NCBI RefSeq assembly: GCF_055900595.2
Contig: NZ_JBVWEU010000005.1
DNA length: 40,586 nucleotides
Direction: 5' to 3' (one strand)
Origin: a plasmid
The notes beneath the pieces were generated by a model. That model was not told the DNA's origin. It searched no databases and worked only from the letters and a program-made list of their open reading frames with translations. Below, in pieces: positions 8,041-18,598 of the stretch. Position numbers and translations under genes: made by a program. Position 1 is the first letter of the stretch. Every line of letters begins with the position of its first letter.

Positions 8041-8212
8041 GGACTTGCTCCTTTATGTTCCAGTCATCAGCGGTGACGTCCATCACGTTTAACAGTTGTT
8101 GAACCTTGCCTGTATTCAGGCTGGCTTCGTTTGGGTTTCCTGCCAATGCACCACCATGCCCCGTATTTAGCATGGCGAGTAACAGCCCTAATTCTTCGGA
8201 ATTTTGTTTCAT
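8024..8212 (-). CDS. small Gly-rich ORF bridging the traI stop and traG start
   Basis: 62-aa ORF; its start overlaps the traI stop and its end overlaps the traG start. Could be real (translational coupling) or chance. Confidence 0.25.
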   Translation of the reverse strand: MKQNSEELGLLLAMLNTGHGGALAGNPNEASLNTGKVQQLLNVMDVTADDWNIKEQVHEKAK

Positions 8213-10842
8213 CGACTTCTTCCTTTCGTTGTCCTAACTGAACCGGAAGGGGTAAGTGTGACTGACTCCCCGACTTTAAGATTGCTCAGTCTCCGGGCGG
8301 TGTAATCGCTGACAGGCATCACAACAATTTCATCATCCCGTTTTAGCAGGGCTAACGTTTCCAGCCCGCTTTTACGTTGGCCTGCATACTCAAACAGACC
8401 TTTATCAGTAGAATTATACCCTCTATGTTTCGGTATATCGAACCCTTTAAGGCGTTTTTGCTCACGTTCATTGATATATTTTTCAGCACTACTCAGCGGT
8501 TTCTTAACCTCAGCAGGTGTTGTTATTCCTCCTGCCCCAGCCATATCCCGTCGCAGTTGATCAGCACATTCGGCTGTTTTGTGCTCCAGCTGGTCAGAAA
8601 CATTACCCTGCAATAACACTTCACTTCCTCCGGCGATGCGAACCATACCGAGTTCGGACATTGCTCGCAGACGGTTTTTTGCTGTGGGCGGCGGCTGGCG
8701 TCCAGGTCGCGCAACGTTGGGCTTACTATGTCCTCGTTCGCCATTTGGTTCGGCTGCTCGACTTCTCCCTGTACGGGTGTCATCACTCCTTCCTGGCTGG
8801 CTTCCTGCTGTAGTAACAGCATCGCCTGAGCCAATTCGTCTTCTGCTGCTGCTGGTTCCATATCCGTTTCCGGCATCAGCGGAGGTGCTTCGTCCTGTGA
8901 CTCCTGGCTCATTTGCTCCAGTAGCATTGCCATTACCGCTTCGTTCTCGTCCTGCATCGGTTCGTTCTGTTCCGGCATATCTTTGTCGTCTTTGTTCATT
9001 GTCTTTTCCCTCATTCATTCGGATAAAGTTTTCAATCCGATCTCTGGTTGCGTAAGGACCGACAAACCAGGATTTCTTTTCGGTGTCCCACATGGCTCCG
9101 GCTTGCCGGGCCTTGCCTCTTTGCTCAAAGGGGATGTGGATGTATTCACGCTCGCGGGCCGCTTTCTTAGCCAGAATTTGCCTCAACTTTTCCAGTTCAG
9201 GATCGGCAAATGACACGTCCAGCTCACGCGCAGCGGCTACAGCTACAATGCGTTTTTTAAATTCAAAACTGCCGTTAACGGTGAGTTTGTCTCCGTAACG
9301 GTGTTTAGCCATCAGCAGTGCGGCATGAAGACCGTCATCACCAGCATCACGTGATACATCCAGACGTTTACCACCGTCACGGATAGCACTCTCTCCCACG
9401 CGGTAAATAATCGTCCCTTCCTTCGTTACGCTGTCCGGTTTCAATCCAGGGATACGGCCATCTTTTTTGACTTTATCGCCATGCAGAATGTTGGCCTCTT
9501 TACGAGCCCGTTGTGCATTCCGCTGGCGTAAAATTTTTAGCGCTTCATCATCACCACCTGCGGCTTTGAACTGCAGCCAGTCAGCCCATGTACGGCGTTT
9601 ATGAATGTCATAAGCTGCCTGCCGGTCTTTTTTATAAATGGCATTTGCCCGTTCAAGTTCTTCCCCAAGCGCCTTACTTGCCAGACCATATAAATGGCGT
9701 TTATTCACACCCGGTCCTTTCAGTAACTTGATAGCTGCCCGCTTTAACCGGCCTGTCCTTTTGGCATTTTCAATGAGGCGATCACGTTTAACCTTTGCCA
9801 GACGCAGCGCTTCGTTACGGGCAGCAGTAAGCCGTTGCTGTTCACTCTGGTAGCGCCCGTAAAGAACTGAGGTACTTGCACCCTGAGAACCCAGCGGTTT
9901 GCCCTCATAGCGTTTACCACTGTTAATCGACATAACGGGAATCTCCCCAAGGTGAACCTGTCGGTTTTCACGAATTGGTGGGGGGCGTTCTCCGGGCCGC
10001 TTAACATGTACAGCTGAACCGAATCGTTGTTTAATCGCTTCTGGGGAAAGTCTGGAAGGTTTCGTGTCGGGTATGGAAGACTCAAACGAGCCTAATTTCT
10101 TTTCAAGCGCTGCTCGGGACAGAGAGCGATCTACAGAGCTGGCTTTTACAGCAAGGCCATCGGGACCAGTAATAACGAATCCATTCCCTTTCTGGCGTAA
10201 CTCAAGCCCATTCTGGCGCATTGCCTGATGTAACTCTTGCCAGTTAGCCGCTCTCTTTAATTGATCTGCGCACTCCCTCTTTATCCAGCCAAGCAAACTT
10301 TCTCTGCCGGAATGCCTTTCCATATCTGCCGCATTATTTTCGGATCGCGTCTTACTTGCCCGGTGATTATCGCTTTCAAGGCCAAATTCCTTTTCGAGTG
10401 CCATACATACCGCTGAACGGGTTTTGTAATCGTTGTAGGGGGTATGAATGTTGTAAGTTTGTGGATGGATTTTATTTATAGCGATATGGATATGCACATT
10501 ATCAGTGTCGTAATGAACAGCACTGACACGCTGATGATCGGCATACCCCATAGCCGCGCAGATACGTTCTTCTACAGCATCCAGAACCTCCTGTGACGGT
10601 TTTTCTCCAGGACGAAAGGAAACGATAAGGTGATAGGTCTTGTCGCCCGCTGCGCGCGTATTACGCCGTTGTGTAGGCTCAATCTCATAACGGGCCGCAT
10701 CAAGGATATTTTCATGATGACAGTTCGTAACCTTAATAGCACCCACGCGCTCCTGTTTGTTTTGGGGATCTTGCACATACTTGGCAAGCTCAACAAAACT
10801 ACTCTTTTTGACATTTCGCATTGGGATGTGACGCGAAATCAC
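8209..10842 (-). CDS. traI: TraI relaxase (MOBP family) with long Gly/Ser/Arg-rich C-terminal extension
   Basis: N-terminus MISRHIPMRNVKKSSF...VTNC and HYDTDNVHIHIAINKIH match the IncP TraI signature; start codon is GTG (plus-strand CAC at 10840-10842). Confidence 0.9.
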   Translation of the reverse strand: MISRHIPMRNVKKSSFVELAKYVQDPQNKQERVGAIKVTNCHHENILDAARYEIEPTQRRNTRAAGDKTYHLIVSFRPGEKPSQEVLDAVEERICAAMGYADHQRVSAVHYDTDNVHIHIAINKIHPQTYNIHTPYNDYKTRSAVCMALEKEFGLESDNHRASKTRSENNAADMERHSGRESLLGWIKRECADQLKRAANWQELHQAMRQNGLELRQKGNGFVITGPDGLAVKASSVDRSLSRAALEKKLGSFESSIPDTKPSRLSPEAIKQRFGSAVHVKRPGERPPPIRENRQVHLGEIPVMSINSGKRYEGKPLGSQGASTSVLYGRYQSEQQRLTAARNEALRLAKVKRDRLIENAKRTGRLKRAAIKLLKGPGVNKRHLYGLASKALGEELERANAIYKKDRQAAYDIHKRRTWADWLQFKAAGGDDEALKILRQRNAQRARKEANILHGDKVKKDGRIPGLKPDSVTKEGTIIYRVGESAIRDGGKRLDVSRDAGDDGLHAALLMAKHRYGDKLTVNGSFEFKKRIVAVAAARELDVSFADPELEKLRQILAKKAAREREYIHIPFEQRGKARQAGAMWDTEKKSWFVGPYATRDRIENFIRMNEGKDNEQRRQRYAGTERTDAGRERSGNGNATGANEPGVTGRSTSADAGNGYGTSSSRRRIGSGDAVTTAGSQPGRSDDTRTGRSRAAEPNGERGHSKPNVARPGRQPPPTAKNRLRAMSELGMVRIAGGSEVLLQGNVSDQLEHKTAECADQLRRDMAGAGGITTPAEVKKPLSSAEKYINEREQKRLKGFDIPKHRGYNSTDKGLFEYAGQRKSGLETLALLKRDDEIVVMPVSDYTARRLSNLKVGESVTLTPSGSVRTTKGRSR
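8523..9014 (-). CDS. traH: TraH-like acidic protein encoded in an alternate frame inside traI
   Basis: 163-aa highly acidic ORF (E/D/Q-rich), same strand as traI but a different frame; RP4 has traH nested in traI in the same way. Confidence 0.45.
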   Translation of the reverse strand: MREKTMNKDDKDMPEQNEPMQDENEAVMAMLLEQMSQESQDEAPPLMPETDMEPAAAEDELAQAMLLLQQEASQEGVMTPVQGEVEQPNQMANEDIVSPTLRDLDASRRPQQKTVCEQCPNSVWFASPEEVKCYCRVMFLTSWSTKQPNVLINCDGIWLGQEE

Positions 10843-10870: not shown

Positions 10871-11230
10871 TCATTTGATCAGTATCCTATCCATTACTGT
10901 TCGTAGCTCGTTTTGGGTTGACTCAATTTTTGCCAAAAGAGTTTTGATTAGTGACACGGAAAAATTACGGGTTCTCTCGTCATTGGAAAGCCACAACTTC
11001 AGTAATCCGCCAAGTCGACCTAAATCACCATTTACCCGACTCAGCTCCTGAACCTGTTCAATATCGACCATGGATTCCACTTCATAACCCATTCCAACCT
11101 TACGCAGAAATGCGGCAGTGCTCAGTCCAGCGGCATCTGCGTTGCGCTTAATGATCGCTTCTTCTTCTGGCAGAACTGGCACACGAATGTGCTTGCCATG
11201 CTTACGTGTAGTTTTCACTTGTTCCGTCAT
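10871..11230 (-). CDS. traJ: TraJ oriT-recognition protein
   Basis: 119 aa, directly flanking oriT upstream of traI; SD GAGGT. Confidence 0.8.
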   Translation of the reverse strand: MTEQVKTTRKHGKHIRVPVLPEEEAIIKRNADAAGLSTAAFLRKVGMGYEVESMVDIEQVQELSRVNGDLGRLGGLLKLWLSNDERTRNFSVSLIKTLLAKIESTQNELRTVMDRILIK

Positions 11231-11464
11231 TTGACCTCACTCGCGGCGGTAGCCGCGTAGCCTCGCAGAGCAGGACTCCCCTTGAGAATCGAAGATGCGA
11301 ATAGGGGAGAGTAAAGTTTGATAACCTGTTTACAGGTTAGCTAACTTTACATGTCCTGCCCGGCTTTCGCCGGTGTTTACGCCAAGGAAAGTCTACACAA
11401 AGAAAAGTGGAATGTCGTGTTTTTTGATGTAAAACTGTGGATATAACGAAAAAACGGCGTTACT
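11231..11464. other. oriT: origin of transfer (oriT) between divergent traJ and traK
   Basis: Imperfect 17-bp inverted repeat 11313-11329 / 11332-11348, followed by TGTCCTGCCCGGC resembling the RP4 nic region ATCCTG/CCCGGC; predicted nic between 11358 and 11359. Confidence 0.75.
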
Positions 11465-11523
11465 ATGCCGCATACACCGGAAAACCAAGGTTTTCCGGGC
11501 GGTTTACAACTGTTATCCTGCTC

Positions 11524-11565
11524 AAATACACACGTAAATACACAGAAATACCTCATAAATACACA
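11524..11565. repeat. four helically phased AAATACACA-like direct repeats (spacing 10-12 bp)
   Basis: aaatacaca at 11524, 11536 and 11557, and aaatacctc at 11546; located between oriT and the likely traK start. Confidence 0.7.
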
Positions 11566-11578
11566 CGCAGGTTATCGG

Positions 11579-12013
11579 ATGGGAAAAGACTATTTAACTG
11601 ACCTACAGGAGTGGGTTAAGCAGAAAAAGGGGCTGAACGGCAAGAGTGCAAACAGCGGGAGGGTAGTCTTCCTGGCAATCCGGGAAGACGTCAGAAATGC
11701 GATTGAAGCCGGTTACTCTCTTACTACGATATGGGAACACATGCACGAAACTGGTCGTGTTAATACCACATACGAAACTTTTCGTCGGCATGTCCGGCGA
11801 TACATAGATGAACGAAAACGTGCAGCTGCTGTTAGCGAAAGTACACCTGCTGGAGCTACGGTAAAGAAAGAAAGCCAACAAACCGGTCCGTCACCGAAGA
11901 AAGAAACAGTGATCCCGGAGAGAACGCCGGTCAAAAGAGAGCCGCCTACGAATACCGGCAGTCAGCTGCCATCTTTCAATTTTAATCCTGGAAAAAAGAA
12001 GGGGACTAACTAA
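11579..12013 (+). CDS. traK: TraK-like basic oriT-binding protein
   Basis: Track ORF 11465..12013; start moved to the internal ATG at 11579 because the upstream part overlaps the phased repeats. Position between oriT and traL as in RP4. Start is uncertain. Confidence 0.6.
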   Translation: MGKDYLTDLQEWVKQKKGLNGKSANSGRVVFLAIREDVRNAIEAGYSLTTIWEHMHETGRVNTTYETFRRHVRRYIDERKRAAAVSESTPAGATVKKESQQTGPSPKKETVIPERTPVKREPPTNTGSQLPSFNFNPGKKKGTN

Positions 12014-12798
12014 TGCCTACTGCAGATAAAAATAAAAAACAGAGTGAAGCTGAATCAGTGCCGGTACGCCATGCTGTTCACAGCGCCCAGCAAGGAAAAG
12101 GTGGTTGTGGTAAATCCGTTAGCACCGCTTTGGTGGCAATGTACAAGATTAGCAAAGGTGAGCTACCGCTGTGCATCGATACCGATCCGCTCAATCCTAC
12201 ATTCTCTAATTATGAAAAACTGAACGTCCGACAGCTGAACATCATGGAAGGTGATGAAATTAATCAGCGCAAACTGGATACCCTCATCCAGTGGATTGAT
12301 GAAGCCGGTGATAGGGACGTTATTATCGATAACGGCGCTCCGTCATTTATTCCGTTATCAAGTTATATGATTAGCCAGCAAATCCCCGCCCTGCTTTATG
12401 AAATGGGTAAACAGCTTGTCATTCATATCTCGATTGTGGGGGGGCAGGCACATGATTACACCGTCGAGGGGTTCAAGGCCATGGTGGAGCAGTATCCGTC
12501 AGAAACCCGTTTTGTTGTCTGGCTTAACCCGTATTGGGGCGCGGTGGAATCCGATCAGGGAGTGCCATTCGAAGAATCAGAAGCGTACCTGATGAATAAA
12601 GACAAGGTTGATGCGCTTATCCGTTTGCCTACACTCAAAAAGGAGTTACACGGCCAGGACTTTGCCGACATGCTGGAAAACTACAAGACCTTCGATGAGG
12701 CCATTGAAGATAAATCATTATCTATTATGGTTCGCCAGCGTCTGAAACAGGTTCGCGCCCTTATTTTCGAACAGCTTGATTTAGCAACGGTGATCTGA
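12013..12798 (+). CDS. traL: TraL P-loop ATPase (MinD/ParA-like)
   Basis: 261 aa, Walker A QQGKGGCGKS; start overlaps the traK stop. Confidence 0.8.
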   Translation: MPTADKNKKQSEAESVPVRHAVHSAQQGKGGCGKSVSTALVAMYKISKGELPLCIDTDPLNPTFSNYEKLNVRQLNIMEGDEINQRKLDTLIQWIDEAGDRDVIIDNGAPSFIPLSSYMISQQIPALLYEMGKQLVIHISIVGGQAHDYTVEGFKAMVEQYPSETRFVVWLNPYWGAVESDQGVPFEESEAYLMNKDKVDALIRLPTLKKELHGQDFADMLENYKTFDEAIEDKSLSIMVRQRLKQVRALIFEQLDLATVI

Positions 12799-13238
12799 TG
12801 GATGATAAGACGGAAGAACTCATTGCGCTCATTGCTAAAAAGCATGGTATAGCCCTGGATGAAACCGATCCGATTATGGTCGTTCCTACCCTGCTTCGTT
12901 ATTTGCTGGATGAAAGCCAGGAGAAACAGGGTGAAATTCTGGATGAGTTTAAATCCGAGCTACAAAGCGCCCTGATGCAATGGGATTACAGCGCGAAGGA
13001 TAAGGCTGACCGTATCCTTAACGCCGCGCTAAAGGCGAATACGGAAGTAATGGAGCGGGTTTTGACATCTGCCGCCACAGAAACCGCTGTCATAATCAGA
13101 AAGGAAGTTCAGGACGAGATCAGAAAATCGCGGGCGCACATAGAAGGGGCAAGAAAACTTGCCATGATGAATATGGCGGCGGCGGTGATCACCTTAATGG
13201 CTGCTGCCGTCGCATTCATTGCAACGTTTTACAAGTGA
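12798..13238 (+). CDS. traM: TraM-like protein
   Basis: 146 aa, overlapping start/stop with traL, hydrophobic C-terminus; position as in RP4. Confidence 0.7.
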   Translation: MDDKTEELIALIAKKHGIALDETDPIMVVPTLLRYLLDESQEKQGEILDEFKSELQSALMQWDYSAKDKADRILNAALKANTEVMERVLTSAATETAVIIRKEVQDEIRKSRAHIEGARKLAMMNMAAAVITLMAAAVAFIATFYK

Positions 13239-17357: not shown

Positions 17358-17948
17358 CTAACGACTTAATTTCTTCTTTTTCATTCTGGCCTGCTCAATC
17401 TCTGTCCCAGCGACTTTTTTAAACCAATCAGGCAAATCATTAGAAATGAACTTTGTTTTATCTTGTTCTGTGCGGAAAAGTAATCGCCGTCTGTTATAAC
17501 TGTTATCAAATACCCATACCCGGTCAGCCACGGCCATAGCTTTAGGTAGGTTGGTTACAGAACGCTCGTATCGTCTGAAAATATCATCAACAGGCACATT
17601 ATGACCACCAAGGCTTACACGCTGGTTAACGCGAGCTACTGACATTCCTACATCTTTCACCCCCACATAGATTAAATTAATTTTGTAACCTGCAGTTGCA
17701 GCAAGCTGCATTAACTTAATCTCCCCCATTCCTGTGAGTGTCGTTTCTACAGCGAAAGTACATCTATTTTTGATATTTTCCGTGCGCAGAAAAAGTGCCT
17801 GCTCTCCTGCCTTTCGATTGCTTATACCTTGTTCCCGCGCAATATCATCAGGGTTAACAACCTCTATTTTCCCAAGGATATGTCGCTTAACTAGGGTAGA
17901 TTTTCCTGCACCATTAGGCCCAGCAATAACCCAGAGTTGAGGACGCAT
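17358..17948 (-). CDS. zeta-toxin-like P-loop kinase
   Basis: 196 aa; Walker A AGPNGAGKST at residues 9-18, then IEVVNPDDIA resembling the zeta-toxin hhhDNDxF segment; ATGA start/stop overlap with the upstream ORF. Confidence 0.55.
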   Translation of the reverse strand: MRPQLWVIAGPNGAGKSTLVKRHILGKIEVVNPDDIAREQGISNRKAGEQALFLRTENIKNRCTFAVETTLTGMGEIKLMQLAATAGYKINLIYVGVKDVGMSVARVNQRVSLGGHNVPVDDIFRRYERSVTNLPKAMAVADRVWVFDNSYNRRRLLFRTEQDKTKFISNDLPDWFKKVAGTEIEQARMKKKKLSR

Positions 17949-18199
17949 CAGAGCTTAACCTCAACTACTTTTTCTGTACCAGTCATGAAACTCACCAGTT
18001 CCTTACGGCCATCTGGATATTCTTTTATAACACACCCTTCTGGTGTATTTCGTTCAGCGTAATAAATAGGTACGCCACTAAGAAGATTGGCACGGGCTTC
18101 TTCACCTGCATCATATCCAAGTTGTCTATCAAAAACGGTAAAAAATCGTGCTTCATCAGAAGGTGTCATTTCGGCCAGATGAGATAGATCCATACTCAT
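17948..18199 (-). CDS. small protein translationally coupled to the kinase (candidate antitoxin/partner)
   Basis: 83 aa, acidic; its stop overlaps the kinase start. Confidence 0.45.
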   Translation of the reverse strand: MSMDLSHLAEMTPSDEARFFTVFDRQLGYDAGEEARANLLSGVPIYYAERNTPEGCVIKEYPDGRKELVSFMTGTEKVVEVKL

Positions 18200-18274: not shown

Positions 18275-18598
18275 CTATGACACTTTGGGTTTCCATGTTG
18301 CCATAATGTAAGTGAGAGTAGCCAGTACAAGGAAACTGGTCACGAACGGCCAGGCTGCAGCAAATGGGCCATCACTCCATTTAAACAGCATTTTAAAAAA
18401 CTGGATGACAACGTTCGCGATCAGCAGGAAGCGAACAGGAATCCAGAGAATAACCAGCACCATGTATACCGCACCAATGACACCATACAGGATATTACGT
18501 ACTGTGTTTTCTGATGCTGGACCAGCGACATCCTCGACCGCCCGAATTTGCTGCGGTTTACTTCCCTCTTGACGAGGAAATTTAACGACATTGGTCAT
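18275..18598 (-). CDS. small inner-membrane protein (two TM helices), first gene of the operon
   Basis: 107 aa, hydrophobic core; perfect SD AGGAGG; operators immediately upstream. Confidence 0.6.
   Translation of the reverse strand: MTNVVKFPRQEGSKPQQIRAVEDVAGPASENTVRNILYGVIGAVYMVLVILWIPVRFLLIANVVIQFFKMLFKWSDGPFAAAWPFVTSFLVLATLTYIMATWKPKVS

Follow-up and report, generated by a model that had tools for sequence, protein, structure and literature searches.

A conserved array of phased direct repeats as the probable core of the TraK binding region in IncP/P-1 'clade II' plasmids

Four short direct repeats, following one another at 10–12 bp steps, lie between nic and traK of the IncP-1 plasmid analyzed here, and on the evidence of sequence comparisons this array is a real, conserved and functionally constrained element. 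We propose, with a probability of roughly 0.65 and on the basis of sequence, a predicted structural model and analogy, that TraK binds the clade II IncP-1 oriT here, the array being the sequence-specific core of its binding region, with a build like that of the stbDR repeats of StbA. The DNA analyzed (40,586 bp, hereafter the window) is an almost complete plasmid. Over the region, pSTEC2018_607-e (40,792 bp) is 99.8–100% identical to the window, and pJJ1886_4, pHS102707 and many other plasmids of E. coli, Klebsiella and Salmonella are 93–98% identical to it. The relatives of the window are typed as MOBP/MPF_T, and the backbone genes are of the KorA/IncC/KorB/KfrB/KfrC type. As pHS102707, pMCR_1511 and pDS1 were assigned to IncP/P-1 'clade II' in a 2022 survey (PMC9499019), the window plasmid is a member of this clade (pHS102707/pJJ1886_4/pDS1 type).

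An exact search of both strands of the window detected three matches to the motif AAATACACA, all of them on the plus strand within 11524–11565: copy 1 (11524–11532), copy 2 (11536–11544), which is the best conserved of the copies, and copy 4 (11557–11565). By comparison, 0.40 matches were expected from 100 dinucleotide shuffles, only one of which reached three matches anywhere. Copy 3 (11546–11554, plus strand) is a variant, AAATACCTC, that has only the first six of nine bases in common with AAATACACA and scores 9.8 bits against the position weight matrix. The start-to-start distances are 12, 10 and 11 bp (mean 11.0), leaving spacers of 3, 1 and 2 bp, and Tandem Repeats Finder independently reports 11524–11565 as a repeat of period 11 with 3.9 copies and the consensus AAATACACAG. 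Both searches confirm the four copies at 10–12 bp spacing described in an initial, sequence-only reading of this DNA, with the nuance that the third is a variant. The relaxed core A[AT]ACAC forms no other cluster (at least three in 60 bp, or two in 25 bp) on either strand of the whole window, where the position weight matrix likewise finds only scattered single matches outside the array. A continuous 11-bp TACA grid extending back to nic was considered and dropped, since the matrix scan between nic and the array returned weak matches only, at most 7 bits.

To place the array among its relatives, we aligned the intergenic regions of 15 loci whose TraK proteins are 52–100% identical to that of the window, from Lonsdalea, Salmonella, Serratia, Pantoea, E. 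coli and metagenomes; those with the exact motif all come from Enterobacterales hosts or from gut or environmental metagenomes. The intergenic length is 346–351 bp throughout, and the copies are in register, with steps of 12/10/11 bp in 14 of the 15 relatives and of 11/10/11 bp in the remaining one, which has lost 1 bp of a spacer. Weighted column entropy amounts to 0.28 bits for the 8-mers, 1.15 bits for the spacers and 0.42 bits for the remaining DNA between nic and the array; thus, the array cores are about four times less variable than the spacers, which accept almost any sequence. Within copy 1, CAC is invariant and the A-tract nearly so; in copy 2, ATACACA has six invariant positions and one that is almost invariant; and in copy 4, AA.ACAC is invariant, the most distant relatives having AAAAACAC. 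The variant form of copy 3 is retained at its position in all relatives (AAATAC[C/T/A]T[C/T], with TAC.T invariant). Because the cores are kept in register while the spacers drift, the array appears to be a sequence-specific, phase-dependent element.

One plasmid of this group, pGDZJ002-1 (NZ_MH043623, 1486–1987), carries a natural 93-bp in-frame tandem duplication corresponding to window positions 11490–11582 (GTTTTCCGG...array...CGGATGG), which provides it with eight motif copies and with a doubled ribosome-binding site and ATG upstream of traK.

The array lies in a transfer region of familiar layout. On the minus strand are traI (8209–10842) and traJ (10871–11230; NikA-like by Pfam), and a 348-bp oriT intergenic region separates traJ from the leader operon traK-traL-traM, which, judged by gene order and Pfam matches, is divergent from traJ-traI. 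On the plus strand, traK (11579–12013) encodes a 144-aa protein of the DUF5338/TraK family (Pfam E 2.4e-23), the proposed binder of the array; traL (12013–12798), co-operonic with traK, encodes a ParA/StbB-like ATPase whose translation contains the Walker A sequence KGGCGKS; and the product of traM (12798–13238) has an Activator-TraM Pfam match. TraL of the window has no Pfam match, and the TraL proteins of relatives match CbiA. By alignment with IncP-1 oriTs, the nic region is TCCTG/CCC (11354–11361, plus strand; the slash marks the nick), which is invariant in the relatives and places the putative nick between 11358 and 11359; it aligns with ATCCTG/CCCGG of RP4-type and other IncP-1 oriTs. 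A 19-bp imperfect inverted repeat (11310–11351; 16 of 19 positions matching) is the counterpart of the 19-bp inverted repeat that is bound by TraJ in RP4 (PMC7314908). Classical IncP-1 oriTs (alpha, beta, epsilon and others) align to the left two thirds of the intergenic region, and the alignment to the RP4-type oriT ends about 45 bp past nic. The array itself occupies nic+166 to +207 and lies 14 bp upstream of traK, which starts at nic+221 (RP4: +229). The Rfam family RF01760 (traJ-II RNA), a cis-regulatory RNA motif, matches 11259–11361 on the minus strand with 99.9 bits (gathering score 40); the match spans both the 19-bp inverted repeat and the nic region of oriT, i.e., the traJ 5' leader.

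Upstream of the array we identified a putative traK promoter, with a -10 box TACTAT (11461–11466, plus strand) and a -35-like TGGATA (11438–11443) 17 bp upstream of it. TA.TAT is invariant in all 15 relatives, and TACTAT aligns with GCTATAATG of the RP4-type oriT, which is reportedly the -10 box of RP4 traKp (Zatyka 1994). A sigma-70 consensus scan of 11150–11700 called no promoter, TGGATA-17-TACTAT scoring 8/12, which is below threshold; the assignment therefore draws on homology and invariance, and not on the scan. The one terminator-like match is on the minus strand, at 11471–11454. At the start of the putative traK leader is a perfect 9-bp inverted repeat, CCGGAAAAC-CAAG-GTTTTCCGG (11477–11498, plus strand), which forms a stem in both the minimum-free-energy and the consensus folds and shows compensatory changes at two pairs, seen in pDS1, Serratia and the relative P0021; RP4 has an unrelated hairpin at this place. 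The array is bracketed by an imperfect inverted repeat, whose left arm is the conserved block CAACTGTTATCCTGC (11507–11521, plus strand), near-invariant in the relatives, and whose right arm, GCAGGTTATCGGATG (11567–11581, plus strand), includes the Shine-Dalgarno (SD)-like AGG (11569–11571) and the traK ATG, with GCAGG and ATG invariant in the 15 relatives. At 11515–11521, 3 nt before copy 1 and on the same strand as the putative nic, is a second nic-like heptamer, ATCCTG/C, which is kept in 14 of the 15 relatives. The IncP nick consensus is YATCCTG/Y, and this heptamer fits it better than does the primary site, TCCTG/C (11354–11359).

The sequence-only reading had pointed to a report that RP4 TraK wraps oriT-adjacent DNA, and the literature bears this out: RP4 TraK binds and wraps the DNA between nic and traK, stimulates relaxation, and represses both traJp and traKp (PMC7314908, PMC3098194, PMC6414798). 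The array falls in the interval homologous to this target, downstream of the putative traKp. The predicted model of TraK is all-helical, lacking an N-terminal beta strand, and its structural neighbours are helix-turn-helix and homeodomain-like proteins, the top structural match, a modest one, being the DNA-binding domain of StbA. Searching PDB sequences with a profile of the TraK alignment returned nothing relevant and did not detect StbA, and NCBIfam gave only a sub-threshold match to an IS21-transposase helix-turn-helix.

By analogy with these systems, we propose TraK as the protein that would bind the array, wrap the DNA and repress the operon. An N-terminal StbA-type helix-turn-helix domain of TraK would bind head-to-tail to the four AAATAC(A/C)(C/T)(A/C) sites, all of which would be presented, owing to the 11-bp cycle, on one face of DNA that is already curved. 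Cooperative binding may then nucleate or anchor a larger wrapped complex over the approximately 200-bp stretch from nic to traK, and this complex would help TraJ and TraI to nick at oriT. As the array follows the traK promoter and precedes the traK start codon, its occupation by TraK may also autoregulate traKLM. The four sites span 42 bp, the RP4 complex covers about 180–200 bp, and no further strong sites were found between nic and the array; hence, the array would be only part of the TraK target.

That the DNA is curved is a prediction of two dinucleotide wedge models (Bolshoy-Trifonov and De Santis) run with approximate parameters, so that the values are approximate as well. In these models, no other 60-bp stretch of the oriT region is as curved as the array, which ranks among the top 1.2–1.8% (Bolshoy-Trifonov) or 0.03% (De Santis) of 60-bp stretches of the window, and the 200-bp stretch from nic to traK is within the top 0.01–1.5%. 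Locally, the predicted bending is strongest at about 11426, upstream of the array. The window-wide maximum is found elsewhere, at about 18135 (18100–18170), where phased A5/A6 tracts (TCAAAAACGGTAAAAAATCG) lie between the open reading frames 17358–17948 and 18275–18598.

A qualitative comparison across IncP-1 groups suggests that the type of motif found upstream of traK tracks the type of helix 3 in TraK. TraK proteins with a YETFRRHV helix 3 (this clade, pPE52IMP, P0044 and a Shewanella element) are preceded by [AT][AT]ACAC or ATGCAC units at 11- or 23-bp steps, those of the Shewanella element being TTACAC-11-ATACAC-11-ATGCAC. The YETFRSHARRHI type (RP4-like plasmids and a Xanthomonas plasmid) is accompanied by A[AT]ACAG or ATGCAG units about 10 bp apart, and the YD[AT]F..VNRLI type (pKJK5 and a Methylotuvimicrobium plasmid) by AAATCG units at 11, 23 or 31 bp. 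In general, other groups of IncP-1 type (loci L009, L010, L011 and L023–L027) have short direct repeats of their own directly ahead of traK (about 60 bp), at steps of approximately 10–11 bp or multiples thereof. A role of TraK as reader of these motifs would fit both this tracking and the published dependence of oriT specificity on TraJ and TraK.

Taken one step further, these observations permit a more speculative reading, which we regard as possible but put forward tentatively. The array would provide the first clearly readable recognition code for the TraK/DUF5338 family: a head-to-tail helix-turn-helix array on 11-bp direct repeats like that of StbA, the repeats of which co-vary with helix 3 across IncP-1 subgroups (TACAC, ACAG and AAATCG types) and so account for the TraK-dependent oriT specificity that has long been known, with traKLM being a module of the StbABC type. 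If this is true, traKLM would couple relaxosome architecture, autoregulation of the leader operon and, via the bracketing anti-SD repeat, translation.

Alternative explanations of the array range from coding sequence to a site for a host protein. An open frame runs from an ATG at 11465 into traK in the window and in six relatives, so that the repeats might encode an N-terminal extension of TraK (a 182-aa form), and one public annotation does have a long form. The sequence-only reading had argued from the repeats that traK starts at 11579 rather than at 11465; this conclusion is right and now strongly supported, but for other reasons, the repeats being a weak argument on their own. In tblastn and an alignment of 36 sequences, homologues, RP4 TraK (MPKSY...) among them, begin to align at the first residue of the short form (at the N-terminus of RP4-type TraK, MPKSYTDELAEWV against MGKDYLTDLQEWV), none aligns upstream of it, and Pfam DUF5338 begins only at residue 47 of the long form. 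Annotations of relatives by PGAP or by depositors, all but one, start at the equivalent of 11579, where the ATG is present in 15 of 15 relatives. The 11465 ATG, in contrast, is frame-shifted, stop-interrupted or absent (ATT) in 8 of the 15, lacks a preceding Shine-Dalgarno sequence, and overlaps the last part of the invariant TAnTAT -10-like box, the G of the ATG not being invariant. Since two of the repeat steps, 10 and 11 bp, are not divisible by three and the upstream frame is not conserved, the array does not appear to be coding, and it shows no clear codon-position pattern. For practical purposes, frame and homologue alignment thus refute an N-terminal extension; the start of traK is settled as that of the 144-aa protein, and some public annotations are wrong. 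The exception among the annotations is on a contig of GCA_051798345.1 (1501–2043), where a 180-aa TraK (P0006) is made to begin at the ATG that lies in the -10-like box; P0019 (191 aa) may have been over-extended in a similar way. It is also very improbable that the array has no function and was left behind by replication slippage or tandem duplication. Duplications of this short tandem kind do arise here, as that of the whole array in pGDZJ002-1 illustrates, but a neutral remnant would not be expected to keep its register down to 52% TraK identity, with cores so much less variable than spacers, or to maintain copy 3 as a distinct variant in all lineages. On these sequence comparisons, the array is neither a recent slippage product nor coding sequence, and both ideas are effectively excluded.

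The main alternative to a TraK array is a role at the RNA level, which we consider unlikely. The array would then form a loop of the traK 5' leader, A/C-rich, conserved and without structure, that serves as a translational enhancer or as the site of an RNA-binding regulator; with the loop closed by a CAACUGUUAUCCUGC/GCAGGUUAUCGGAUG helix that masks the Shine-Dalgarno sequence and the AUG, its occupancy would tune TraK translation. The position of the putative -10 box at 11461–11466 puts the array within the transcript, so it is probably transcribed. Single-sequence and consensus folds leave it unpaired, RNAalifold predicts a 12-pair helix with three mismatches (11507–11521 with 11567–11581) that brackets it and pairs the SD-like AGG and the AUG with an upstream segment containing CCUGC, the two arms hardly vary among 12 relatives, and the leader folds better than shuffled sequences (z = -2.67). 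However, this helix is almost without covariation (one pair in one sequence), and its right arm would be conserved anyway as ribosome-binding site and start codon. Moreover, a general unstructured enhancer would be expected to keep its composition rather than an 11-bp register of four 8-mers whose spacers vary freely, an Rfam search placed no family on the array, and the homologous RP4 DNA binds TraK in vitro according to the literature. Distinctly unlikely, in our estimation, is a site for a host factor (a tandem site for an OmpR/PhoB-type regulator, ArcA, or H-NS, Fis or IHF with a preference for phased A-tracts) or a pure element of curved DNA. OmpR/PhoB-type response regulators do bind direct repeats at 10–11 bp, and direct repeats at 10–12 bp, A-tracts, flexible CA steps and strong predicted curvature would suit such a site, as would a host factor common to the Enterobacterales and metagenomes in which the exact motif occurs. 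By eye, however, the array contains no match to the consensuses of IHF (WATCAR...TTR), ArcA (TGTTA-N6-TGTTA) or RstA (TACA-N6-TACA), and the ACAC half of the motif, which curvature alone would not need, is conserved at least as well as the A-tract. In addition, where plasmids of other hosts differ in the type of TraK helix 3, related motifs ahead of traK appear to differ with it, which argues for a plasmid-encoded reader.

Several observations weigh against TraK as the reader of the array: RP4 itself has no regular repeat, the motif is not reused at other promoters, unlike the stbDRs, the sharpest predicted bend lies outside the array, the four sites are much shorter than the RP4 complex, and the array is probably transcribed. 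If TraK does bind here, the compact four-site array offers a concrete target for TraK footprinting and a handle on oriT specificity and mobilisation, and it may help to predict which oriTs a given TraK serves. Plasmids of this clade (pHS102707, pMCR_1511 and pJJ1886_4 types) are vehicles by which mcr-1, KPC and CTX-M genes spread among Enterobacterales.

A close counterpart is the RP4/RK2 system (IncP-1 alpha), the TraK-oriT nucleoprotein complex of which was reportedly described by Ziegelin et al. in 1992, with 'srk' as its site. RP4 and the window plasmid have in common the gene order (traI-traJ, oriT, traK-traL-traM), homologous nic regions and 19-bp inverted repeats, and homologous TraK proteins, which are about 35% identical and align from Met1 (in an alignment that includes the TraK proteins of pB8 and pKJK5). 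The target, too, would occupy the equivalent interval from nic to traK, after traKp, in DNA with intrinsic curvature (here predicted). In contrast, RP4 has no regular 9-bp repeat; what it has is CAAATGCAGGAAATTACTGA, a degenerate look-alike as far from the ATG as copies 2–3 are here, and its oriT DNA ceases to resemble the window soon after nic, as described above. Furthermore, binding, wrapping and repression were demonstrated for RP4, whereas for the window plasmid they are proposed.

Arrays of direct repeats at about 10–12 bp are also found in type II/III partition centromeres (R1 parC/ParR, the ParR systems of pB171 and pSK41, and tubC/TubR of pBtoxis), which are located upstream of an operon, are bound cooperatively on one face to give a curved or superhelical scaffold, and are autoregulating. 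These centromeres, however, have many more repeats and function in segregation rather than in relaxosome assembly. As ParR is a ribbon-helix-helix protein and TraK is predicted to be all-helical and helix-turn-helix-like, a type II centromere of the ParR/parC kind was rejected as an identity for the array. TraD of NAH7 (IncP-9), which belongs to another plasmid family, is a StbA homologue of the leading-region StbA/TraK type that binds oriT DNA by EMSA (PMC12421886).

A further likeness is to StbA and the stbDRs (stbS) of the IncW plasmid R388. StbA binds cooperatively to 9-bp direct repeats with 2-bp gaps, two dimers occupying four repeats along a single helix face, and controls the expression of its own operon. 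Iterative PSI-BLAST (seven iterations) has linked StbA to TraK_RP4 and StbB to TraL_RP4, which share a leading-region position next to oriT, and the motif class KGGxxK[T/S] marks the TraL_RP4-type StbB homologues of MOBP plasmids (Guynet et al. 2011; PMC3098194); TraL of the window carries GKGGCGKS and thus conforms to this class. As in R388, the array in the window consists of 9-bp direct repeats with an 11-bp cycle, upstream of a three-gene leading-region operon beside oriT in which the first gene encodes a small protein, of the helix-turn-helix type in R388 and tentatively so predicted here, and the second a ParA-like ATPase. There are also clear differences. The stbDR motif is TTGCATCAT (consensus T/CTGCATCAT), as opposed to AAATACACA, and its spacers are uniformly 2 bp, compared with 3, 1 and 2 bp here; a BLAST search with a synthetic stbDR array matched a different stbDR promoter of R7K. 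R388 has two sets of five repeats overlapping the promoter, plus sets of two or three copies at other promoters, whereas the window plasmid has a single set of four, which lies downstream of the promoter, and no further set in the rest of the near-complete plasmid. StbA is, in addition, a segregation protein, a task for which IncP-1 plasmids use IncC/KorB, and its sequence homology to TraK is remote. No description of these repeats was found in the literature searched, and a search with AAATACACA returned only unrelated primer or target sequences. Most likely, therefore, a previously undescribed motif here makes up a known kind of element, a TraK-type oriT repeat array, and on this reading the old observation that RP4 TraK wraps curved DNA would be linked to the better-defined architecture of StbA and its stbDRs.
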